From positions 50,690 through 114,689 of IMG/VR virus record IMGVR_UViG_3300028008_000005: 64,000 bases of DNA; one strand, written 5' to 3'. The position numbers and the translations under genes are program-made. Below the pieces are notes generated by a model. It was not told where the DNA came from. It saw only the letters and a list, made by a program, of their open reading frames with translations, and did no database searches. Of the stretch, positions 1 through 9,286 are shown in pieces; position 1 is the first letter of the stretch, and every line of letters starts with the position of its first letter. The stretch comes from a virus.

Positions 1-9
1 TTACTTACA

Positions 10-1287
10 ATGATTACATTTTTTCTTGTTGGCTTTGTTGCTGGCGGAGTTAATGGTCAAACATATACAGAAGAAGTAGCAAGCATTATTAACGAAAACT
101 GCGTGGTCTGTCACAGAGCAGGCGGCATTGGACCTATGAGCTTTGAAACATATGAGCAAGTAAGACCATGGGCACCACTTATCCAAATGAGAGTGGCTAA
201 CCGTGAAATGCCTCCCTATGCATACGATCATGGAATTGGTATTCAAGACTTGCAAGGTGACTGGCGACTATCACAGGATGACATAGACACTGTTGTTGCG
301 TGGGTCAATGAAGGATCTCAATACGGCAATCCAGACACAGTATTACAGTCAGTTGACCTAGGCGATCCAGAAGCATGGAGCTTCGAAGGAGACTTTGGAG
401 TACCAGATGCAATCATACCAAGTGTAGCAATCGATATTCCGGCAAACGGTAACGACCTATGGCATAAGCATTTAGTACCTACAGGCCTTACTGAAGATCG
501 CTGCATTAAAGCAGTACAGGTAAAGCCTCGTGGTGATGCAAAAGCAGTAGTGCATCACGCTAACTCCAATGTTGTTATTGACGGAGGTCGTGAAGGTATG
601 CTCACGGAGTATGCTATGGGAAAGTGGGGAGAGATCGTCCCAGAGGGAGTATGCAGGCTACTTCCAGGAAACGCAGAAATCAGATGGGATATTCACATGT
701 TCCCGGGTGGACTTGGAGCAATGGCACCCGGATCAGTTATCAAAGACAACGTGGTAGAGATTGGTCTTTGGTTATATACCGAAGAGGAAAGCCAAGGATT
801 GAAATACAAACAAGATTTGAGTCTGTATCGCCTAGGCAACCAGGACGATATTACGATACCCCCAAATGGTTACTACATGACTCAAGGTTTACACAGTTTT
901 GATCATCCAGTTAGACTAGATAGTTTTCAACCACATGGACACTTGCGTATGAACGCAGCAAGTTTGGAAATATTCTATCCAGAGACAGGACGCACAGAAC
1001 AGATTAGCCAAGTAAGTAATTGGAGTGCAACATGGCATCACAGTCATTTATATGACCCAGATGTAGCACCACTCTTACCAGCAGGCGCAGTGATTGTTCT
1101 GAAGCAATGGTACGATAACACATCAGACAATCCAAATAACCCAGATCCAGATATGTGGGTAATGGGTGGCTCAAGAACAGGCGATGAGATGACGCACGCG
1201 TGGCTTGCTATTACGCATCTAGATGACGAAGGATATAATAGGCTAAAAGATGAAAGAAATGAAAGAGTTGAGCTTGCTAATAGATAA
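10..1287 (+). CDS. Exported cytochrome c / copper type II (PHM/DBM-like) monooxygenase fusion; the start may lie upstream of the window
   Basis: Hydrophobic N-terminus and CVVCH haem-c motif. PHM-type copper ligands occur in the expected order: VVHH, DIHM, PHGH, DEMT. The frame is open back to base 1. Confidence 0.8.
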   Translation: MITFFLVGFVAGGVNGQTYTEEVASIINENCVVCHRAGGIGPMSFETYEQVRPWAPLIQMRVANREMPPYAYDHGIGIQDLQGDWRLSQDDIDTVVAWVNEGSQYGNPDTVLQSVDLGDPEAWSFEGDFGVPDAIIPSVAIDIPANGNDLWHKHLVPTGLTEDRCIKAVQVKPRGDAKAVVHHANSNVVIDGGREGMLTEYAMGKWGEIVPEGVCRLLPGNAEIRWDIHMFPGGLGAMAPGSVIKDNVVEIGLWLYTEEESQGLKYKQDLSLYRLGNQDDITIPPNGYYMTQGLHSFDHPVRLDSFQPHGHLRMNAASLEIFYPETGRTEQISQVSNWSATWHHSHLYDPDVAPLLPAGAVIVLKQWYDNTSDNPNNPDPDMWVMGGSRTGDEMTHAWLAITHLDDEGYNRLKDERNERVELANR

Positions 1288-1408
1288 TCGCAATAGGTTA
1301 GATATAGATAGGGATTGGGAAGAATACCAAGAACTAACTGAAGAGATCCAACTTTTACAAAATGATTTAGTAACACTATCAATTATGGGAGAAGATTTAA
1401 ATGAATAA
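1250..1408 (+). CDS. Possible 52-aa acidic helical protein ([52 protein letters not shown])
   Basis: Translated by hand. It fills the gap between the two monooxygenases and overlaps both. No family recognised. Confidence 0.35.
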   Translation: MKEMKELSLLIDNRNRLDIDRDWEEYQELTEEIQLLQNDLVTLSIMGEDLNE

Positions 1409-2645
1409 AATAAACGCTGCGGCAGGAACATTAGGTGTTCTATTGCTAATGCTTGGACTTAGAGCAGAAGCGCATGACGATGTAAAGATCGACTACGCAG
1501 AGAACGTAGCCCCTATCTTTGTAGAACAATGTCAAAGCTGCCACCGTGAAGGTGGTATTGCACCGTGGGCAATGAGTGACTTTAGAATGTTGCAAGCATT
1601 CGCCCCTGCAATCCGTGAAGCAGTTACAACATTAGAAATGCCACCCGGGCAGATTGATCGCAAATATGCAAAGGATATTATCAATCATCGCACACTCAGT
1701 CATACAGAAATGGAGACTATTGTACAGTGGATTGATGCAGGCGCTCCTGTCGAAGGTGACAGAGATCCGCTAACAGAAACTGTATACTCAACATCAGAGT
1801 GGGTACACGGTGAGCCTGATATGATTGTCTATGTACCAGCACAAGAAATTCCTGCTGGTCCTTCTGCGATTCCATATCGTTATGTTGGTGTAGACTTAGG
1901 ACTAACTGAAGACAAATGGCTTCGTGGTTCAGAGTTTTTGCCTTCAGAGCCTACAGTAATGCATCACATGCTAAACTCAGTAAGTGTACCGGGAGAGCGT
2001 AATGGCAACATCTTAGGCACACAAGGTGGCGGACAAGAAGAAATGAACTACGCTAGTGTGAGTGCATATGTACCAGGAGGCGATCCAGAATTTTATGACG
2101 AGAACACTGGTGGTTTGTTAAGAGCAGGTTCAACAGTAAACTTACAGTTACACTACACACCAGACGGCAGAGCAAGAACTGACGAAGCAAGAATTGGTTT
2201 GTACTTTCACGATGAAGGTGTAGTACCAGAAGAGAGAATGGCAGGCGACTGTGCTTGTATCTTCCCTAACAACTGGACAACTATCCCTGCATTTGATCCT
2301 AACTTTGTACAAACAGCAGAAGTAGTTCTAAAGCAAGATGTAATGCTGCACACATTCTTACCACACATGCACTTCCGTGGCAAGAGTATGAAAGCAACTG
2401 CATTCTATCCAGACGGCACTGTAGAAGAACTAATTGATGTACCAAGATATGAATATGCTTGGCAACTATCATACACGTGGAGAGAGCCTAAGTTCTTACC
2501 TGTAGGTACAAGACTGTTTGTAGAGGGAGCATTTGACAACTCAGCAGAGAATAAAATGAATCCCGATCCTAGCAGAGACGTACCGTGGGGTCAGATGAGC
2601 GAAGATGAAATGTTCTTTGGAGCATTTACTTGGAAAAACCTATAA
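1401..2645 (+). CDS. Second exported cytochrome c / copper type II monooxygenase (paralogue)
   Basis: Signal peptide ending AEA, CQSCH motif, and ligand motifs MHHM, QLHY, PHMHFRG, EDEMF. GGAG RBS upstream. Confidence 0.82.
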
Positions 2646-2655
2646 GGGGACTAAT

Positions 2656-2727
2656 ATGTGGACTAAACCAGCTTATGAAAATATAAGACTTGGATTTGAA
2701 ATCACTATGTATTTTAGTGTTAGATAA
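2656..2727 (+). CDS. pqqA: PQQ precursor peptide PqqA ([23 protein letters not shown])
   Basis: Translated by hand: 23 aa with the MWTKP...R.GFE.TMY PqqA signature including ExxxY. AAGGGGA RBS just upstream. Confidence 0.9.
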
Positions 2728-2756
2728 TCTATAACTTGTCAAACTAGGAAAAATAA

Positions 2757-3086
2757 ATGTCAGAAGCAGAAATAAAAAAATCTGGTCATCATCCTGCCGA
2801 TACAAATGGTGATGGTAAAGTAAGCCCTAAAGAACAAGATATGTACATGGAATTTAGGCGTAAAGAGCTTGAAGACCAAGATGCAATGCGGGATGCACAA
2901 AGGAAGATGGCATGGTTTGCTTTAGGTGGTATGCTTCTTTATCCTTTTGCAGTTGTAGTCGCATCCATTGCAGGATTAGACCAAGCTCAGGCAACTCTCG
3001 GTGATATGGCACCTACATATTTTGTTGCTGTTGCTGGTATTGTTGCTGCCTTTTTTGGGGCTCAGGCATTTGCTAAGAAACCATAA
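2757..3086 (+). CDS. Small membrane protein with an EF-hand loop and two TM helices (holin-like topology)
   Basis: Canonical 12-residue loop DTNGDGKVSPKE, two hydrophobic segments and a basic C-terminus. Confidence 0.6.
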   Translation: MSEAEIKKSGHHPADTNGDGKVSPKEQDMYMEFRRKELEDQDAMRDAQRKMAWFALGGMLLYPFAVVVASIAGLDQAQATLGDMAPTYFVAVAGIVAAFFGAQAFAKKP

Positions 3087-3090
3087 TAAG

Positions 3091-3131
3091 ATTAATACGG
3101 GTAGATTTGCCTTGAATCTACCCGTATTAAT
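3091..3131. terminator. Perfect 17-bp inverted repeat; likely bidirectional terminator
   Basis: ATTAATACGGGTAGATT-tgccttg-AATCTACCCGTATTAAT between convergent genes. Confidence 0.75.
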
Positions 3132-3161
3132 AATTAACGGGTGATTTTCTTATGTTTTTCC

Positions 3162-3638
3162 CTAAGGGGTGTTAGACACTAGTAAGCCAATCATAACCGC
3201 GATTATCATAGTTCCTATTATACAAACTGCCCCTATAGTAATTACATCGGACCAGAACTTTTTATTTTCTGCTTCCGCCTTTGCTTTCGCTGCTCGTGCA
3301 TTCATAATTCTTCTACGCTCCGCCATCATATCTTCATAAAATGCACCCTGTCCTGACCATATCAAATATTCTCGCAATTCTTTTTCAAGTTGCATGATTT
3401 TATGTTTTGCGGCTGTTGCTTCAAGTGCTTGTGCTTCGACACTAGTACCAGAAAGAAGTTTAGATGCAATTGGCGCATTTTGACTCAGATGGTTGGCTTT
3501 AATAATATTATCTTTGGCATCAAAAAACTTGCCAAACATCTGCGCCATGTCTTGCGCTTCTTTTCCGGCATCCATTGCCTTTCTAATGGTTTTATAGGCA
3601 CCGTTTGCTATAGAGACTGCTGCTGCGATTTCTATCAT
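3162..3638 (-). CDS. Hypothetical helical protein with a C-terminal TM segment
   Basis: 158-aa ORF with a C-terminal hydrophobic helix; late promoter upstream. Confidence 0.7.
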   Translation of the reverse strand: MIEIAAAVSIANGAYKTIRKAMDAGKEAQDMAQMFGKFFDAKDNIIKANHLSQNAPIASKLLSGTSVEAQALEATAAKHKIMQLEKELREYLIWSGQGAFYEDMMAERRRIMNARAAKAKAEAENKKFWSDVITIGAVCIIGTMIIAVMIGLLVSNTP

Positions 3639-3722
3639 AAACGATCCATTTGAACTGATAGCATAACAAAGAGATATAGGCGTTTCATTTGCTACTCCCT
3701 TATAAGGTAAGAACTATATCTT

Positions 3723-3730
3723 TATTTATA
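3723..3730 (-). promoter_or_regulatory. T4-type late promoter TATAAATA
   Basis: TATTTATA on + strand, in the intergenic region upstream of 3162..3638. Confidence 0.6.
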
Positions 3731-3733
3731 TAA

Positions 3734-4237
3734 TTACTCTGAGTCGTTCAGGGGGTTATCGAGTATACGCTCGATTTTATCTTCTAGTTCATCACGCATT
3801 TCTCGCAACTCTTCATCTAGATCTCTCAGACGATCATTTAACTCTGTCTCCATACCATAAACATCGTTGCGTAAGTCTCTTTGTGTCTCATTTGTAGACT
3901 CGTCAATTGTTCTTACGAATGTATCCATCTCGTCTACGTCTTCACGAACACGGTCTATGTCTTCTGCTATACTTTCAAATAAGGTTGTTACAGTATTAAA
4001 CTGCTGAGATATATCTTCTTGCAGCGAACCGACTGTCTCTGCCTGTACTGCTAACTGCTGATTAATACCAGACATATCAGGAGCAACATATTCTGTTACC
4101 GCTTGTTCTGCATCGAGCAATCTCTGATACAGTTCAAAGCCTCCCCACATGCCACCAAGTATAGTGCCTAGTAATGGGATAAGAATTAGTGCCTTTCCGC
4201 CTGATACTTTCATTTGTCCTATTTCTACTTCAGCCAT
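3734..4237 (-). CDS. Membrane-anchored coiled-coil protein
   Basis: N-terminal TM segment (ALILIPLLGTILGGMWGG) followed by a long acidic heptad region. Confidence 0.7.
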   Translation of the reverse strand: MAEVEIGQMKVSGGKALILIPLLGTILGGMWGGFELYQRLLDAEQAVTEYVAPDMSGINQQLAVQAETVGSLQEDISQQFNTVTTLFESIAEDIDRVREDVDEMDTFVRTIDESTNETQRDLRNDVYGMETELNDRLRDLDEELREMRDELEDKIERILDNPLNDSE

Positions 4238-4502
4238 TTGAAAATTTCCTTTGAATCCATTTAAATGTGTAGTAAATTGTAAGACCGTAACAAGCCAATA
4301 CGCTCATAGGCATCGCTATGTATATTAGCTCCCACGGGGATAAGAATAATATTTCCCATGTAAAGTTTGCTACTGCTTCAGCATCGCCTATAGGATGTTT
4401 AGGTATAAAGGCTTCTGCATCGTCAAATTCAACGTAGTTATGGAACTCTATCCATTCGTTATTTGTAAAACATATTTCAAATTCTTCTGGACACTCTGTC
4501 AT
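4230..4502 (-). CDS. Small membrane protein
   Basis: 90 aa with a C-terminal TM segment; coupled to its neighbours; GGAG RBS. Confidence 0.6.
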   Translation of the reverse strand: MTECPEEFEICFTNNEWIEFHNYVEFDDAEAFIPKHPIGDAEAVANFTWEILFLSPWELIYIAMPMSVLACYGLTIYYTFKWIQRKFSNG

Positions 4503-4504
4503 AA

Positions 4505-6601
4505 TTATCTCCCGTATTGTAAGGATATTAATTCTTTGTATTTCTTATCTGTGCCAATCATTCGCAGCATAGAGTTTCTATCATTCTGTACACTGCTCGT
4601 CGGCATACCTCTGTCAGTGTAAAAGCTAACATCTTGTAGTTGTCCGCTGTATTGTGAAAACGCACTGTTACGACCCATTAAGAATACAGTCAAGCTTTGA
4701 TCTGTGAATCCGCCAGAGTCTTGCATGTTACTAGCAAACTCGTCCAAGTTTTGTTCTAGTTGTTCGTCAGACATATTTTCAGCTTGTGCGTTTGCTTTGT
4801 CTGTAGTCTCCTGTTCTTCTTGACTTGGTGGCGCAACATTAAAACGTGAGAAATCAGGTGGTGCTGTTGAAGTTAGAGCATCGCTTATCGATCCACCACT
4901 AGAGAAGGCTTGATTAGTTTGACTACCAAAGTTCTGGTCTGAAGTTGTTACACCAGATGACGATAAAGTGTCTGTGAAATCTTGGGTATCAGACTGTTGA
5001 TTAGTTGCCTCAATTGATAGTGCTGAAAATATTATAGAAGGCCCTCCAAAGCTAAAATCAAGGTTAGTCTCTTCGCCGAAAGATTGTTTCCCGCCGTTAA
5101 AAGTTTGACCGCTATCTCCCATGCCCATACTACCTGAGTTTTGTTCTATTAAGTCTTCAACAATGCTTTCTTCGGTTATTTCACTAAAGCTTTGAATTTG
5201 GGATTGTTGCTGTGCCTGTGTTATGCTGTTTAAAGCGAACTTGTTGCTTGATGTTATCGATGACTGAACTAAGTTTGCACTAGATTGTATCTGGTTCATA
5301 GCAATGGCCACAGCGTCTACTCTTCTAGCTGCGTTTTGCCTTGTTGCTACTGGACCAGATCGACTATTAACAGGTGCTGCTTTGACTACAGCGACTTCAA
5401 TCATGTCTTCTCTTATGAGTAAATTGTCATCAGAATTACTCATAACTTCGGGTTGCGTGTAATTTTCTTCTTTTTTTACATCTACAATTTGCTTTTCTAT
5501 TTCAGGTGTAAATTCTTCATATGTTTCCTCTATCTCTGGTACAACTACCTCATCGAACTCTTGCTCCATCATGTCTAGTTCTGGTCCACCACCAAAGTCA
5601 TCCAGAGAAGAACCACCATTAAAAAGATCAGGTGTTGATCCATCAAATGTATCAGCTACCATTCCGTTAAAGTCATCCAGAGAAGAACCACCAAAAAACT
5701 CCTCTTGAGTTTGACCAGCTGTCAATGTATCTTGATATGTATCAAAAGGATCCGGGCCGAAATTAAGTGAAGGATCATCAACAAAATCAAATACATTATC
5801 ACCAAAGACTTCAGTACCATCAAAGGATCCTACAGGATCAAAAATGCCACACGACTGTGGATTGTCGTCACATTCATCTACAGCTACGTAATTAGATAGA
5901 GTGGAGTTTACAGTATCTAATACTGAATCAACACCGCTCGCATTCTCATACGCACCTGTTACTGTATTAAACTGCATTGTAAATGGAATATTAGAAACCC
6001 ATTTATTCTTTTTATATTCAAGAACATTATATTGACCAATACTCAAATCACCTGCTGTACCTACCGTAGTGTTGTGCGACTTTATCTTTATTTTATCGTA
6101 TCTAAATTTAATATCACCTGTGTCAAAAATCTTTACTTCAAAGCTATTTAATCTATTAACATTATAATATTCTGGTATATCGTACCAGCCAAACGTGGCA
6201 GTATTGCTTGTTGTTTTATACCAAGGGTTAGGATTATATTCTACTGCTAAGTCTGTCCAAAGACCGAAAATAGAATAACTCAATGCATCCGCTTTGCTAC
6301 CGTTTCTCCATTGCTCGGTATTGTACATTTCAGCTTCTAAGTCGTATCCACTACAACAAAAAGTATGTCCCTTAACACCATTATCTTGGAAGTTCACTAC
6401 ACCGTTGTAAGTGACCCATGCTTTGTCGTATGTGTTATCATAGAAAGGAAAGTCAAACCCTAGATCAACTTGAGCTTGTTGGAGGTCATCGATATCAAGC
6501 TTTACTGCTGAGTTATCATTTCTTAAGTCTACAAGCACAGACGGATATTGCCCATAAGCAATTCCGCTCAATAGCATTAAGGCTATAAATAACTTTTTCA
6601 T
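4505..6601 (-). CDS. Secreted protein with a NIDO/nidogen-like N-terminal domain and acidic low-complexity linker
   Basis: Signal peptide; motifs LGFDFPFY..Y....V..NG.V.F, LWTDL and F.V.IF..G.I.FRY typical of NIDO-like domains. Confidence 0.6.
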   Translation of the reverse strand: MKKLFIALMLLSGIAYGQYPSVLVDLRNDNSAVKLDIDDLQQAQVDLGFDFPFYDNTYDKAWVTYNGVVNFQDNGVKGHTFCCSGYDLEAEMYNTEQWRNGSKADALSYSIFGLWTDLAVEYNPNPWYKTTSNTATFGWYDIPEYYNVNRLNSFEVKIFDTGDIKFRYDKIKIKSHNTTVGTAGDLSIGQYNVLEYKKNKWVSNIPFTMQFNTVTGAYENASGVDSVLDTVNSTLSNYVAVDECDDNPQSCGIFDPVGSFDGTEVFGDNVFDFVDDPSLNFGPDPFDTYQDTLTAGQTQEEFFGGSSLDDFNGMVADTFDGSTPDLFNGGSSLDDFGGGPELDMMEQEFDEVVVPEIEETYEEFTPEIEKQIVDVKKEENYTQPEVMSNSDDNLLIREDMIEVAVVKAAPVNSRSGPVATRQNAARRVDAVAIAMNQIQSSANLVQSSITSSNKFALNSITQAQQQSQIQSFSEITEESIVEDLIEQNSGSMGMGDSGQTFNGGKQSFGEETNLDFSFGGPSIIFSALSIEATNQQSDTQDFTDTLSSSGVTTSDQNFGSQTNQAFSSGGSISDALTSTAPPDFSRFNVAPPSQEEQETTDKANAQAENMSDEQLEQNLDEFASNMQDSGGFTDQSLTVFLMGRNSAFSQYSGQLQDVSFYTDRGMPTSSVQNDRNSMLRMIGTDKKYKELISLQYGR

Positions 6602-7635
6602 TAATTAGGCATGTTAGGTGAGGAGGTCATTTTCCTAACACTGCGTTTGGTTACACCAGGCACATCTATAAGATTCTCTTCCCATGCAACGCCCGCCTCT
6701 TCGCCAATCAAACCTTGGTAAGGGCATGGAGTTCCTGCCATCTTCATAGCAGTCCATACACGCTCATCTTGACACATTAAAGATACAGCAGCAACTCTCA
6801 TACCCATATCGTATATTGTCTTAGCAAGTTTAATTCGTTCACAGTTTGTATCTGTAACCGACTTGCCTGCCGACAAACCAAATATTTGAGTTTGAACAGC
6901 ACCTGCTACACCTGTAGTACACAAGTCTTGTGAGAATGAAGCACCTATAGAAGGAGCAATAGCAGATGGCGGAGGTGACTCTATTTTCTGAGTCACGGTT
7001 TGAGTTGATTGTGATTGATTAATGTTCTGGTTTACATTATTGTTTGTGTTATCAGTTGTTACCTCACTAACGCTGTTGTTATTATTAGATGACGAAGATG
7101 TAGAAACGTTGACGTTTGTATTGTCACTAGTTGATGATGACACATTGGTGTTATTACTAGTACTAGAATTGTTACTGGTAGAAGTATTAACATTGGTGTT
7201 GCTATTTGTATTGGTGTTTGTGTTGGTATTCACATTGGTATTACTGTTTGTATTGTTACTTGTATTGTTGCTTGTATTATTTGAGGTATTGATATTAGTA
7301 TTCACATTAGTATTACTAGTGCCACCACTCATCACGTTATTGTTAGTATTAACATTAGTGTTGCTACTTGTGCTAGTACTGGTATTTGTATTGTTGTTAG
7401 TATTTGTGTTTGTATTATTATTGGTAGCAGTACTAGTGTTGGTATTTGTATTGTTGTTAGTATTTGTGGTAGTTGCAGTCGAGGTCGATGTTGAAGTCGA
7501 CGTGATATCAGTTTCCGCAGTGGATCCTTCGCAGTATTGGGTTCCAGCAGTACAAGTGCCAGTTGCTTGTGCCAATACAGGGTTAGACAATATAGGAGTC
7601 ATCAAAAGCATAGCAAAGAGATATAAACGTTTCAT
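6601..7635 (-). CDS. Secreted Asn/Thr-repeat protein with a Cys-containing C-terminal domain
   Basis: Signal peptide, a long (NT)n-rich tract, then PPPSAIAP..DLC...CERIK...C...PCP. Confidence 0.75.
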   Translation of the reverse strand: MKRLYLFAMLLMTPILSNPVLAQATGTCTAGTQYCEGSTAETDITSTSTSTSTATTTNTNNNTNTNTSTATNNNTNTNTNNNTNTSTSTSSNTNVNTNNNVMSGGTSNTNVNTNINTSNNTSNNTSNNTNSNTNVNTNTNTNTNSNTNVNTSTSNNSSTSNNTNVSSSTSDNTNVNVSTSSSSNNNNSVSEVTTDNTNNNVNQNINQSQSTQTVTQKIESPPPSAIAPSIGASFSQDLCTTGVAGAVQTQIFGLSAGKSVTDTNCERIKLAKTIYDMGMRVAAVSLMCQDERVWTAMKMAGTPCPYQGLIGEEAGVAWEENLIDVPGVTKRSVRKMTSSPNMPN

Positions 7636-7671
7636 AGTTAATTCTCTTTAGGGGGATAGTTATTGCCTATC

Positions 7672-7679
7672 TATTTATA
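7672..7679 (-). promoter_or_regulatory. T4-type late promoter TATAAATA for the leftward operon
   Basis: Exact consensus about 36 nt upstream of the 7635 start. Confidence 0.7.
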
Positions 7680-7688
7680 ATAATTTAC

Positions 7689-7756
7689 GTTACGAACTAT
7701 GACGATTTGGGGGTTCACAAAAGGTATTTTTTAGGGTATAATACTCACATAAATTA
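7689..7756 (+). promoter_or_regulatory. Early sigma70-like promoter, copy 1
   Basis: TTCACA(7714)-N17-TATAAT(7737), with flanks shared with copy 2. Confidence 0.75.
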
Positions 7757-7773
7757 AATAAAGGACCAAACCT

Positions 7774-7959
7774 ATGTCAAAGATGGGCCAGTACATCCAA
7801 GAGTTTAATGACGACCTAATTAATATGTCGTTCCACGATTTTTGTTTAAAGCATGCCAACGACTATCCAAATAAGGCTAAGGACGAGAACAAGCTAAAGG
7901 AGCTCAAGGATGAGTACAACTCTATGAAAGATGATTTGCTAACAAGTTACGAACTGTGA
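7774..7959 (+). CDS. Hypothetical early protein, 61 aa
   Basis: AAGGA RBS; directly follows the promoter. Confidence 0.7.
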   Translation: MSKMGQYIQEFNDDLINMSFHDFCLKHANDYPNKAKDENKLKELKDEYNSMKDDLLTSYEL

Positions 7960-8014
7960 CGAATTAATTGTTTACAAGACCCCCTGTTCTAGTGTATAAT
8001 ACTCACGTAAATTA
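7946..8014 (+). promoter_or_regulatory. Early sigma70-like promoter, copy 2
   Basis: TTTACA(7971)-N18-TATAAT(7995), with the same upstream GTTACGAACT box and downstream ACTCAC.TAAATTA. Confidence 0.75.
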
Positions 8015-8031
8015 GGAAAAGGACAAAGATT

Positions 8032-8121
8032 ATGGAAAAGGTTAAATACGTACTTACTGAAATAGCTATTGCAGGTTCGGTTGGTTTGGTTATGGGAATT
8101 ATTTTTGGATTAGGGGTTTAA
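8032..8121 (+). CDS. 29-aa single-TM peptide (MEKVKYVLTEIAIAGSVGLVMGIIFGLGV)
   Basis: Translated by hand; AAGGA RBS; first ORF after promoter copy 2. Confidence 0.65.
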   Translation: MEKVKYVLTEIAIAGSVGLVMGIIFGLGV

Positions 8122-8123
8122 TT

Positions 8124-8312
8124 ATGAATATTGATAAGAAAATGGTTACAGATATAAACGTTGCTTATAAGCAGTTCTTAAATCTTGTCGAAGAAGGTGC
8201 GGGTGATTTCACAACCCATAAAGCACTGTGCAATATGATAGATTACGCACACTCTCTTCAAATGGAAATAGATCCAGACCCTCGAGCCATTTGCCGGAGG
8301 GAGGGGCGATAA
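8124..8312 (+). CDS. Hypothetical protein, 62 aa
   Basis: Tightly packed ORF; its stop overlaps the next start (TAATG). Confidence 0.6.
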   Translation: MNIDKKMVTDINVAYKQFLNLVEEGAGDFTTHKALCNMIDYAHSLQMEIDPDPRAICRREGR

Positions 8313-8590
8313 TGAATAGGATCGAAATGATTAAGAATGCGGTTCATAAGATTCAGGGCAATCCAGAATTTAAGTCTACTATGCAAAAGGCTAACGCTAG
8401 GTTTATTAAAGATTGCCAAAAGAAGATCGATCGCATTCGAGCTAAGCAAGAGCGTCAGGCAGAGAAAGAGATACAGGAGCTTGACGAAAACTATAACCAT
8501 CTTGAACCAAAGGTTGCTCGCCAAATCGCAGATTCTGTTGTTGGTGAGATATATCGCGAAACTACTAGATTTGATAATGAGTGGAATTAA
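8312..8590 (+). CDS. Hypothetical basic helical protein, 92 aa (start re-called at MNRIEM)
   Basis: GGAGG RBS before the ATG at 8312. Confidence 0.65.
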   Translation: MNRIEMIKNAVHKIQGNPEFKSTMQKANARFIKDCQKKIDRIRAKQERQAEKEIQELDENYNHLEPKVARQIADSVVGEIYRETTRFDNEWN

Positions 8591-8591
8591 T

Positions 8592-8954
8592 ATGGAAACA
8601 TTTGTTGTAACAACACAGATCCTTGAAAACTACGGATCGCATACCACCGACGGGGAATTCTCTTCGGGCAATGCCTACTGGAAGTTTAAGGGTGGATCAA
8701 CGTATATCGTTAAAGGATTATCCCGTAGCCAGGACGCTATGGCTTATGTTGCTGGACCTAATATCGAGAATACCGTTAACTGGAAAGAGTTTCCTATTGA
8801 GGTTATGACCATGGATGAATTTGAATCTAGGTTTCCAGAAGCTTCTGATCTCCTAGATTTTGAATTGAGAGAAGCTATTACTTTAGATGCTAGCGTTGAG
8901 ATACCTACTAAGCCCAAAGGCAGATTTCATCTGCGTGGGTCCTTGGGACTATAA
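8592..8954 (+). CDS. Hypothetical phage protein, 120 aa (start re-called at METFVV)
   Basis: TQ.LENYG.H...YWKFKGG.TY pattern, recalled from T4-like phage early proteins. Confidence 0.7.
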   Translation: METFVVTTQILENYGSHTTDGEFSSGNAYWKFKGGSTYIVKGLSRSQDAMAYVAGPNIENTVNWKEFPIEVMTMDEFESRFPEASDLLDFELREAITLDASVEIPTKPKGRFHLRGSLGL

Positions 8955-9286
8955 TGTCTACACCTCGTCGCTTAAAAGAAGCAAGAATGGAAGCTCACCG
9001 CCAAGAAAAGATTGAGAAGGAACGTAAGAAGTTGTTTACGGTTAATTCAAATAAGAAGGAGTTTATACCCTATGTCCCGAAACCGATTTATCGCAAGGAG
9101 GAACAGAAGTATGAAAGTGCAGTCAGCAGCAAACTCGAACATTCGGCGGCAGCAACAGCAAAGCCAAGAAGAACAGAGTACTCCGGTGACTACGTCACAG
9201 GAATCGCAACAATGCACAAATCAAATCTCGTCCCTGTCGGAAGGGGAGATAATCCGCAAGATTATGCAACAATGAGGAGAAGTTAA
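8954..9286 (+). CDS. Conserved hypothetical T4-like phage protein
   Basis: C-terminal Y.G..V.GIATMHKSN.VPV motif. Confidence 0.7.
   Translation: MSTPRRLKEARMEAHRQEKIEKERKKLFTVNSNKKEFIPYVPKPIYRKEEQKYESAVSSKLEHSAAATAKPRRTEYSGDYVTGIATMHKSNLVPVGRGDNPQDYATMRRS

Follow-up and report, generated by a model that had tools for sequence, protein, structure and literature searches.

Why would a virus carry the gene for the peptide from which PQQ is made, and none of the genes for the enzymes that make it? PqqA is a ribosomal peptide of approximately 20-40 residues, in which a conserved Glu-X3-Tyr pair is cross-linked by PqqE, and whose N-terminal leader, W-T/K-K-P, is recognised by the chaperone PqqD. 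It is the substrate of the pathway, one peptide being used for each PQQ, and PqqD, PqqE, PqqB and PqqC are the catalysts. A first-pass annotation of the stretch analysed here (the window, 64,000 nucleotides corresponding to bases 50690-114689 of a 114,689-bp IMG/VR virus record) had read a 23-codon ORF as a phage-encoded PqqA unaccompanied by pqqBCDE. According to that reading, the gene would be either a cheap supply of precursor or a means of titrating host PqqD/E, and it would imply a PQQ-producing proteobacterial host.

An orphan pqqA in a marine phage genome

The ORF is located at positions 2656-2727 on the + strand, running from ATG to TAA, and its translation is exactly the one initially given. 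The good ribosome-binding site (RBS) that had been claimed for it is the Shine-Dalgarno-like sequence AAGGGGA (2644-2650, + strand), which lies 5 nt before the ATG and overlaps the stop codon of the upstream gene (2643-2645), the gap between this stop and the pqqA start being 10 nt. An alternative reading of 40 codons, starting at an ATG at 2605, is unsupported, as both the RBS and all homologues favour the 23-codon form. A single copy of pqqA is present in the whole 114.7-kb record.

The identity of the peptide is established by two family models with curated cut-offs, both of which are well exceeded. PF08042 (Pfam PqqA) matches over its full length (model positions 1-19) with 41.2 bits against a cut-off of 21.1 (E 1.5e-10), and TIGR02107 (NCBIfam PqqA), which is an equivalog model, gives 49.1 bits against a cut-off of 20 (E 3.4e-13). 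Taking into account that 64 kb of DNA contains a few thousand short ORFs, this match is far beyond chance. The ExxxY pair pointed out in the first-pass annotation is found as E15-I-T-M-Y19 of the 23-residue peptide, and the leader motif WTKP is present at the N-terminus, being invariant among 13 distinct viral copies.

The record, with a CheckV completeness of 64%, belongs to a large uncultured marine phage of the lytic type, T4-like or a giant myovirus. PHROG matches in the window include baseplate hub, wedge and tail proteins at E 1e-45 to 1e-170, and its closest cultured relatives, judged by the baseplate wedge protein and sharing approximately 38% identity, are Melnitz, a phage of OM43, and the pelagiphage HTVC008M. 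GC content is uniform along the window (0.38-0.42), and around pqqA there is neither a host flank nor any DNA flank in common with host pqqA loci. Thus, given the T4-like baseplate and tail genes on the same contig, its status as an IMG/VR record, the uniform GC and the lack of host flank, pqqA sits on a genuine viral genome and is not a host contamination. A role as an attachment site, or in restoring a host gene, was also considered and rejected, because the phage is T4-like and of the lytic type and shares no such flank.

Profile searches for PqqB, PqqC, PqqD and PqqE gave no match either in the window, in agreement with the earlier claim, or in the whole 114,689-bp record, although the blank for PqqC weighs less, since this model was silent in all control genomes too, and, as just 64% of the genome is represented, pqqB-E genes in its missing part cannot be strictly excluded. 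Four related viral records (G006-G009), among them one of 340 kb and 91% completeness carrying the same pqqA, likewise lack any match to PqqC or PQQ alcohol dehydrogenase and any PqqE match above the cut-off. The canonical adjacency of pqqB, C, D and E to pqqA does not exist in the phage record, where pqqA is an orphan copy; the missing operon does not exclude membership of the PqqA family. The phage gene is real, intact and orphan.

Operon context and spread among related viruses

Four genes on one strand, with pqqA in third place, run up to a 17-bp inverted repeat (3091-3131), which is placed between converging gene blocks and likely to be a bidirectional terminator closing the operon. The two genes that precede pqqA (1-1287, + strand, 431 aa, with its start 9 nt before the window; and 1401-2645, + strand, 414 aa) are diverged paralogs annotated as exported cytochrome c/PHM-like copper monooxygenases, each with a signal peptide, a CxxCH haem site and HH..H / HxH..M motifs. 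In an alignment of 50 homologues, H188, H189, H251 and H324 are invariant, and H322, M404, C44, C47 and H48 nearly so. Searching the PDB directly with the sequence of the neighbouring protein returned nothing useful, but the profile of the 50-homologue alignment matches human dopamine beta-hydroxylase (DBH, 4zel; E 1.6e-7), and the AlphaFold model of the second paralog (pLDDT 87.3, pTM 0.82) matches in Foldseek the whole catalytic core of peptidylglycine alpha-hydroxylating monooxygenase (PHM; E 3e-11, probability 1.0). From these models, both proteins are predicted to be two-copper monooxygenases carrying a two-domain beta-sandwich fold with the copper ligands of PHM/DBH.

The family of these enzymes is large (approximately 11,000 representative clusters). 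Its cellular members, of about 580-660 aa, possess an extra N-terminal AhpC/TSA redoxin domain that the phage enzymes lack, and therefore the haem domain is the only electron entry left in the latter. In a few cellular homologues EF-hands are fused at the C-terminus. The fourth gene of the operon (2757-3086, + strand) encodes a 109-aa protein with membrane helices in its C-terminal part and, at the N-terminus, an EF-hand-like motif (DTNGDGKVS), and the existence of those fusions hints that this protein may work together with the monooxygenase cassette.

PHM is a peptide-modifying enzyme, and the location of a peptide gene beside two enzymes with its fold raises the idea that the product of the 23-codon ORF could be the precursor of some other modified peptide, made by its neighbours. 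This is extremely improbable. The enzymes have signal peptides and a haem c site, hence being periplasmic, and the peptide has no export signal; it also lacks a C-terminal glycine, fits the PqqA equivalog model and tracks the PqqA type of the host.

With respect to expression, a sigma-70 promoter scan yielded a number of sites not above that of shuffled sequence, and the nearest same-strand T4-type late motif is found 2.5 kb upstream. Part of the region 1-3100 of the window is present in 16 RNA-labelled public runs originating from several studies, and 11 listed runs, 8 of them on record as RNA, contain at least half of the words sampled from this region. When the contigs of four runs were mapped on positions 1-9000, the pqqA segment (2656-2727) was covered without mismatch by RNA-library contigs of three independent studies, and in two studies the summed contig depth over 1-3300 was several times that recorded for the block at 3300-6600, which lies on the opposite strand. 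RNA contigs bridge the genes of the operon; one of 874 nt extends from 2214 to 3087, where the fourth gene has its stop codon. The search for metatranscriptome coverage that had been suggested thus yielded matching contigs, although these carry no strand, give only a rough level and may derive from phage DNA carried over into RNA libraries, so that they constitute a hint that pqqA is transcribed. In one of the metatranscriptomes (run X4) a co-occurring variant departs from the window at 2635 and rejoins it at 2789, so that the pqqA segment is precisely where relatives from the same water diverge.

The tandem monooxygenase pair matched 113 IMG/VR contigs, ocean viral contigs with 76-100% identity, from which 80 loci were kept, most of them containing both genes. 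These loci were collected through the neighbouring gene and not through pqqA, which directly follows the monooxygenase gene in 17 of them; the copies tested score 39-48 bits with TIGR02107. In the other 63 the cassette is found without pqqA, and hence the gene is dispensable; in two loci (L176 and L185) the fourth gene comes directly after the cassette, with no pqqA between. Conversely, pqqA occurs outside the cassette in 119 other viral loci. At least 120 viral contigs with pqqA were detected in IMG/VR using a degenerate DNA pattern; GGAG-like sites precede the ORFs of other viral contigs, and no pqqB-E was found near pqqA in the 119 viral contigs examined. In two related T4-like contigs (L057 and L074) pqqA occupies other genome positions, adjoining homologues of genes that lie approximately 46-63 kb and 2-10 kb into the phage record, which implies that the gene has moved or has been gained more than once. 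Its common position within the cassette may reflect one ancestral insertion.

Short ORFs ending in ..GFAITLY.. were also observed directly after the monooxygenase gene in three loci (L192:7230-7274, L217:6491-6535, and about 6900-6950 of L236, the contig G105:C59). They may be decayed pqqA copies in which the cross-link residue Glu15 has become Ala and the leader has been lost, the indication being weak when taken alone.

In the 13 distinct viral ORFs of the window type, M1, W2, T3, K4, P5, Y7, R11, L12, G13, F14, E15, T17, M18 and Y19 never change, and their codons vary freely, six different ones being used for Arg at position 11 and four for Gly at position 13. The means of pS and pN are 0.60 and 0.11, giving a dN/dS of approximately 0.10, an estimate inflated by sampling and flattering to the gene because the conserved residues were built into the pattern used to gather some of the ORFs. 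The set found through the neighbouring gene is free of this bias, and in it the frame is intact in 17 out of 17 copies. Taken together, these comparisons indicate that pqqA is kept by purifying selection in phages, and that the copy studied here is very probably functional.

The same data bear on whether pqqA could be a mere passenger that does nothing for the phage, be it a fragment of host DNA or a gene in decay. Such an origin might be suspected from the fact that most relatives lack the gene and from the possible remnants that L192, L217 and G105:C59 show in its place. Nevertheless, it is very unlikely, as all the retained copies keep their frame despite many synonymous changes, the likeness of the DNA to host copies is only moderate, no host flank accompanies the gene, and it has an RBS of its own. 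Moreover, Arg is encoded by AGA in the phage pqqA versus CGT/CGC in cellular copies, from which it follows that the gene has adopted the codon usage of the phage.

The predicted host

A degenerate pattern for the PqqA signature of the window, scanned over one genome per prokaryote species, matched 17 stretches, nearly all of them from Pseudohongiella, Pseudohongiellaceae, Pseudomonadales or unclassified Gammaproteobacteria. In 14 of these 17 cellular stretches pqqB, pqqD and pqqE lie beside pqqA, most with pqqC after them, and two more end inside pqqB at the end of the locus. The closest cellular peptides, identical to that of the phage at 21 and 20 of the 23 residues, come from genomes that have complete pqq operons and are assigned to Pseudohongiellaceae or to unclassified Gammaproteobacteria, which supports the PQQ-producing proteobacterial host proposed in the first-pass annotation.

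Five small marine genomes of this host type (G001-G005, of 2.0-3.5 Mb; loci L129, L132, L137, L141 and L144) were searched for the enzymes that could be concerned. The PQQ alcohol-dehydrogenase family gives 2-5 matches above the cut-off in each, and 25-52 matched places in all. In the same genomes the haem-copper monooxygenase family has 11-17 matched places, corresponding to paralogs, some of them in pieces, the best being 54% identical. Strong monooxygenase matches were found in 73 of 121 sampled genomes of the family to which one of the host-type genomes belongs. The number of PQQ dehydrogenases and of redoxin-cytochrome c-copper monooxygenases in the five genomes represents an unusual investment in periplasmic oxidation. 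The low-GC marine members of the host type have a GC content of 0.43-0.44, which is compatible with that of the phage (0.38-0.40).

Taking into account that one bacterial family is indicated by two phage genes unrelated to each other, and that full pqqABDEC operons and dozens of PQQ-dehydrogenase paralogs are found there, the likely host is a marine member of the Pseudohongiellaceae (Gammaproteobacteria), a reasonable prediction from the PqqA sequence type and the sharing of a gene family.

Two further loci deserve comment. One contig binned as Verrucomicrobiales (L134; WTHG01000117.1, 5,003 bp, 38% GC) contains pqqA alone, without pqqB-E, together with a neighbouring ORF similar to a gene of the present phage, and is probably a piece of phage DNA placed in the wrong bin. 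A 78%-identical match in a bin of the Pseudohongiellaceae family (G105:C59; L236:1-6996) was dropped as a link to the host, since this short contig, in which GC steps from 0.63 to 0.40 and the first monooxygenase gene is truncated, is probably chimeric.

Precedents and the proposed role of the peptide in infection

It is probable, with some room for the alternatives, that the phage pqqA is an auxiliary metabolic gene which gives the host the one consumable of PQQ synthesis. The peptide would be translated from its own RBS as the product of the third gene of the four-gene operon. Host PqqD and PqqE would then cross-link Glu15 and Tyr19, and a host protease, PqqB and PqqC would complete PQQ from the phage peptide. 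A lytic T4-like phage would halt host transcription, and the short peptide PqqA would be the first component to run out; thus, a gene of 72 bp could sustain PQQ synthesis on pre-existing host enzymes. The PQQ formed would load the many periplasmic PQQ-dependent dehydrogenases of the host, upholding respiratory energy during infection. A point against this supply of precursor is that the need of a non-growing infected cell for new PQQ is not obvious. The cheap precursor supply put forward in the first-pass annotation is consequently the best-supported reading of the gene, and its standing continues to be that of an inference.

The genomic context allows this proposal to be extended, rather than replaced, by considering pqqA and its neighbours as a single periplasmic redox module of the phage. 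In it, a higher level of PQQ would lead to more active PQQ dehydrogenases, whose electrons would pass to the cytochrome c domains and from these to the PHM-like copper monooxygenases. PQQ alcohol dehydrogenases donate electrons to c-type cytochromes, a transfer on which this scheme draws, and in the phage enzymes, devoid of redoxin, the haem domain is the sole point of entry for them. The genes are co-operonic, as reflected in the 10-nt gap, the single terminator after the fourth gene and the bridging RNA contigs; their arrangement recurs in 17 of the 80 loci, and the candidate hosts are rich in both enzyme families. Nonetheless, the cassette without pqqA (63 of the 80 loci) and pqqA without the cassette (119 other viral loci) are both frequent, related T4-like contigs have the gene elsewhere in the genome, and the common position may stem from one ancestral insertion. 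In addition, about 5 of approximately 55 members of the monooxygenase family lie within 3 kb of a PQQ dehydrogenase in the five host-type genomes, which, in a rough hand count, is approximately the expectation from gene density. This extension, although attractive, is regarded as unlikely. A more specific form of it, in which pqqA would supply the cofactor for a periplasmic chain of oxidations built by the phage, with the monooxygenases oxygenating a periplasmic or dissolved organic substrate and the EF-hand membrane protein as a fourth part, is to be considered quite unlikely.

The supply of PqqA by a phage has been proposed before. A viral PqqA was described in the Lake Baikal population VP_266, together with a viral methanol dehydrogenase, and was proposed to be an auxiliary metabolic gene (Coutinho et al. 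2020, Microbiome 8:163, PMC7678222). As in the present case, that pqqA stands alone, and it was suggested to boost PQQ for host dehydrogenases (PMC7678222). The two cases differ in that the Baikal phages are from freshwater, have predicted methylotroph hosts and encode methanol dehydrogenase, whereas the phage analysed here is marine, has no PQQ enzyme that could be found, and encodes a PqqA of Pseudohongiellaceae type within an operon that also contains the genes for haem-copper monooxygenases.

A tblastn search of 50,697 GenBank phage records produced 12 matches, corresponding to nine cultured Methylophilales phages (Venkman, P19250A, MEP301, MEP401, MEP402 and four Melnitz isolates), one spring-water podovirus and two records named as Acinetobacter phages. 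The phage records inspected contain an intact ORF with an RBS, and TIGR02107 scores of 34-41 bits: Melnitz MZ577097 (L003:4995-5066), Venkman (L005:3001-3069), P19250A (L006:3001-3069), MEP402 (L007:621-689) and MEP301 (L008:3001-3069). In these GenBank records pqqA is unannotated or, in Melnitz, a hypothetical gene on the opposite strand has been called instead; the paper describing Melnitz names PQQ solely as a medium supplement (PMC9004378). The Methylophilales phages resemble the phage studied here in having an orphan pqqA of 23-24 codons with an RBS. They differ from it in the core signature of the peptide, which in them is ..TEMRFGFEVTMYVMNK, and in their hosts, obligate methylotrophs unlike the host predicted here; the baseplate proteins are, as stated above, only distantly alike between Melnitz and this phage. 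The two records labelled 'Acinetobacter phage MD-2021a', which were the top tblastn matches, were both discarded as apparently mislabelled bacterial DNA. The one opened (L002; CAKLQF020000010.1) is a chromosome piece in which fur, ppk, pqqB, pqqC, pqqD and pqqE are accompanied by a pqqA ORF lacking annotation, and its label misleads database searches for phages.

The methylotroph phages are also relevant to the second role contemplated in the first-pass annotation, the titration of host PqqD/E, in which the phage peptide would be a decoy that ties up both proteins and stops PQQ synthesis. The gene is certainly cheap, and it retains the leader motif for PqqD binding. Even so, both cross-link residues, invariant in all the phage copies, and the whole core, indistinguishable from that of host PqqA, are features that a dead-end decoy does not need, and a perfect substrate would raise output instead of blocking it. 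Furthermore, phages of PQQ-dependent methylotrophs bear the same intact gene, in one population together with methanol dehydrogenase. Titration is consequently less likely than supply, and in itself highly improbable.

Orphan copies of pqqA are known in bacteria as well. Hyphomicrobium denitrificans has five, three of them stand-alone, and their expression tracks the rate of PQQ synthesis (PMC9851590). They share with the phage gene a location away from pqqBCDE (PMC9851590), and differ from it in being cellular and under host regulation, this pqqA being virus-borne.

The precursor supply favoured here may also be compared with the carriage by cyanophages of psbA, encoding the D1 protein, whose function in infection has been experimentally shown. 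By analogy, in both situations the phage would encode just the fast-consumed part of an energy system of the host. The psbA protein and its pathway are unrelated to pqqA, and the function of the phage pqqA is deduced from its sequence and context, in contrast to that of psbA.

Phage-borne pqqA has thus been known since 2020 (PMC7678222) and is widespread, the gene at 2656-2727 being a new example of the same kind. What is new is the predicted host type, which is not methylotrophic and is rich in PQQ dehydrogenases, and the operon shared with two exported haem-copper monooxygenases. The range of phage-borne pqqA is in this way extended beyond the phages of methanol-eating bacteria, to phages whose likely hosts are the Pseudohongiellaceae, abundant and uncultured marine Gammaproteobacteria packed with PQQ-dependent dehydrogenases. 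The finding supports the general rule that phages bring the component that a host pathway consumes rather than its catalysts, and it makes the PqqA type a sequence-based clue to the host of a large family of ocean phages. Gene callers overlook genes as short as this one (72 bp) or call them wrongly, published phage genomes included, and for this reason the influence of viruses on marine PQQ-dependent carbon oxidation is underestimated.
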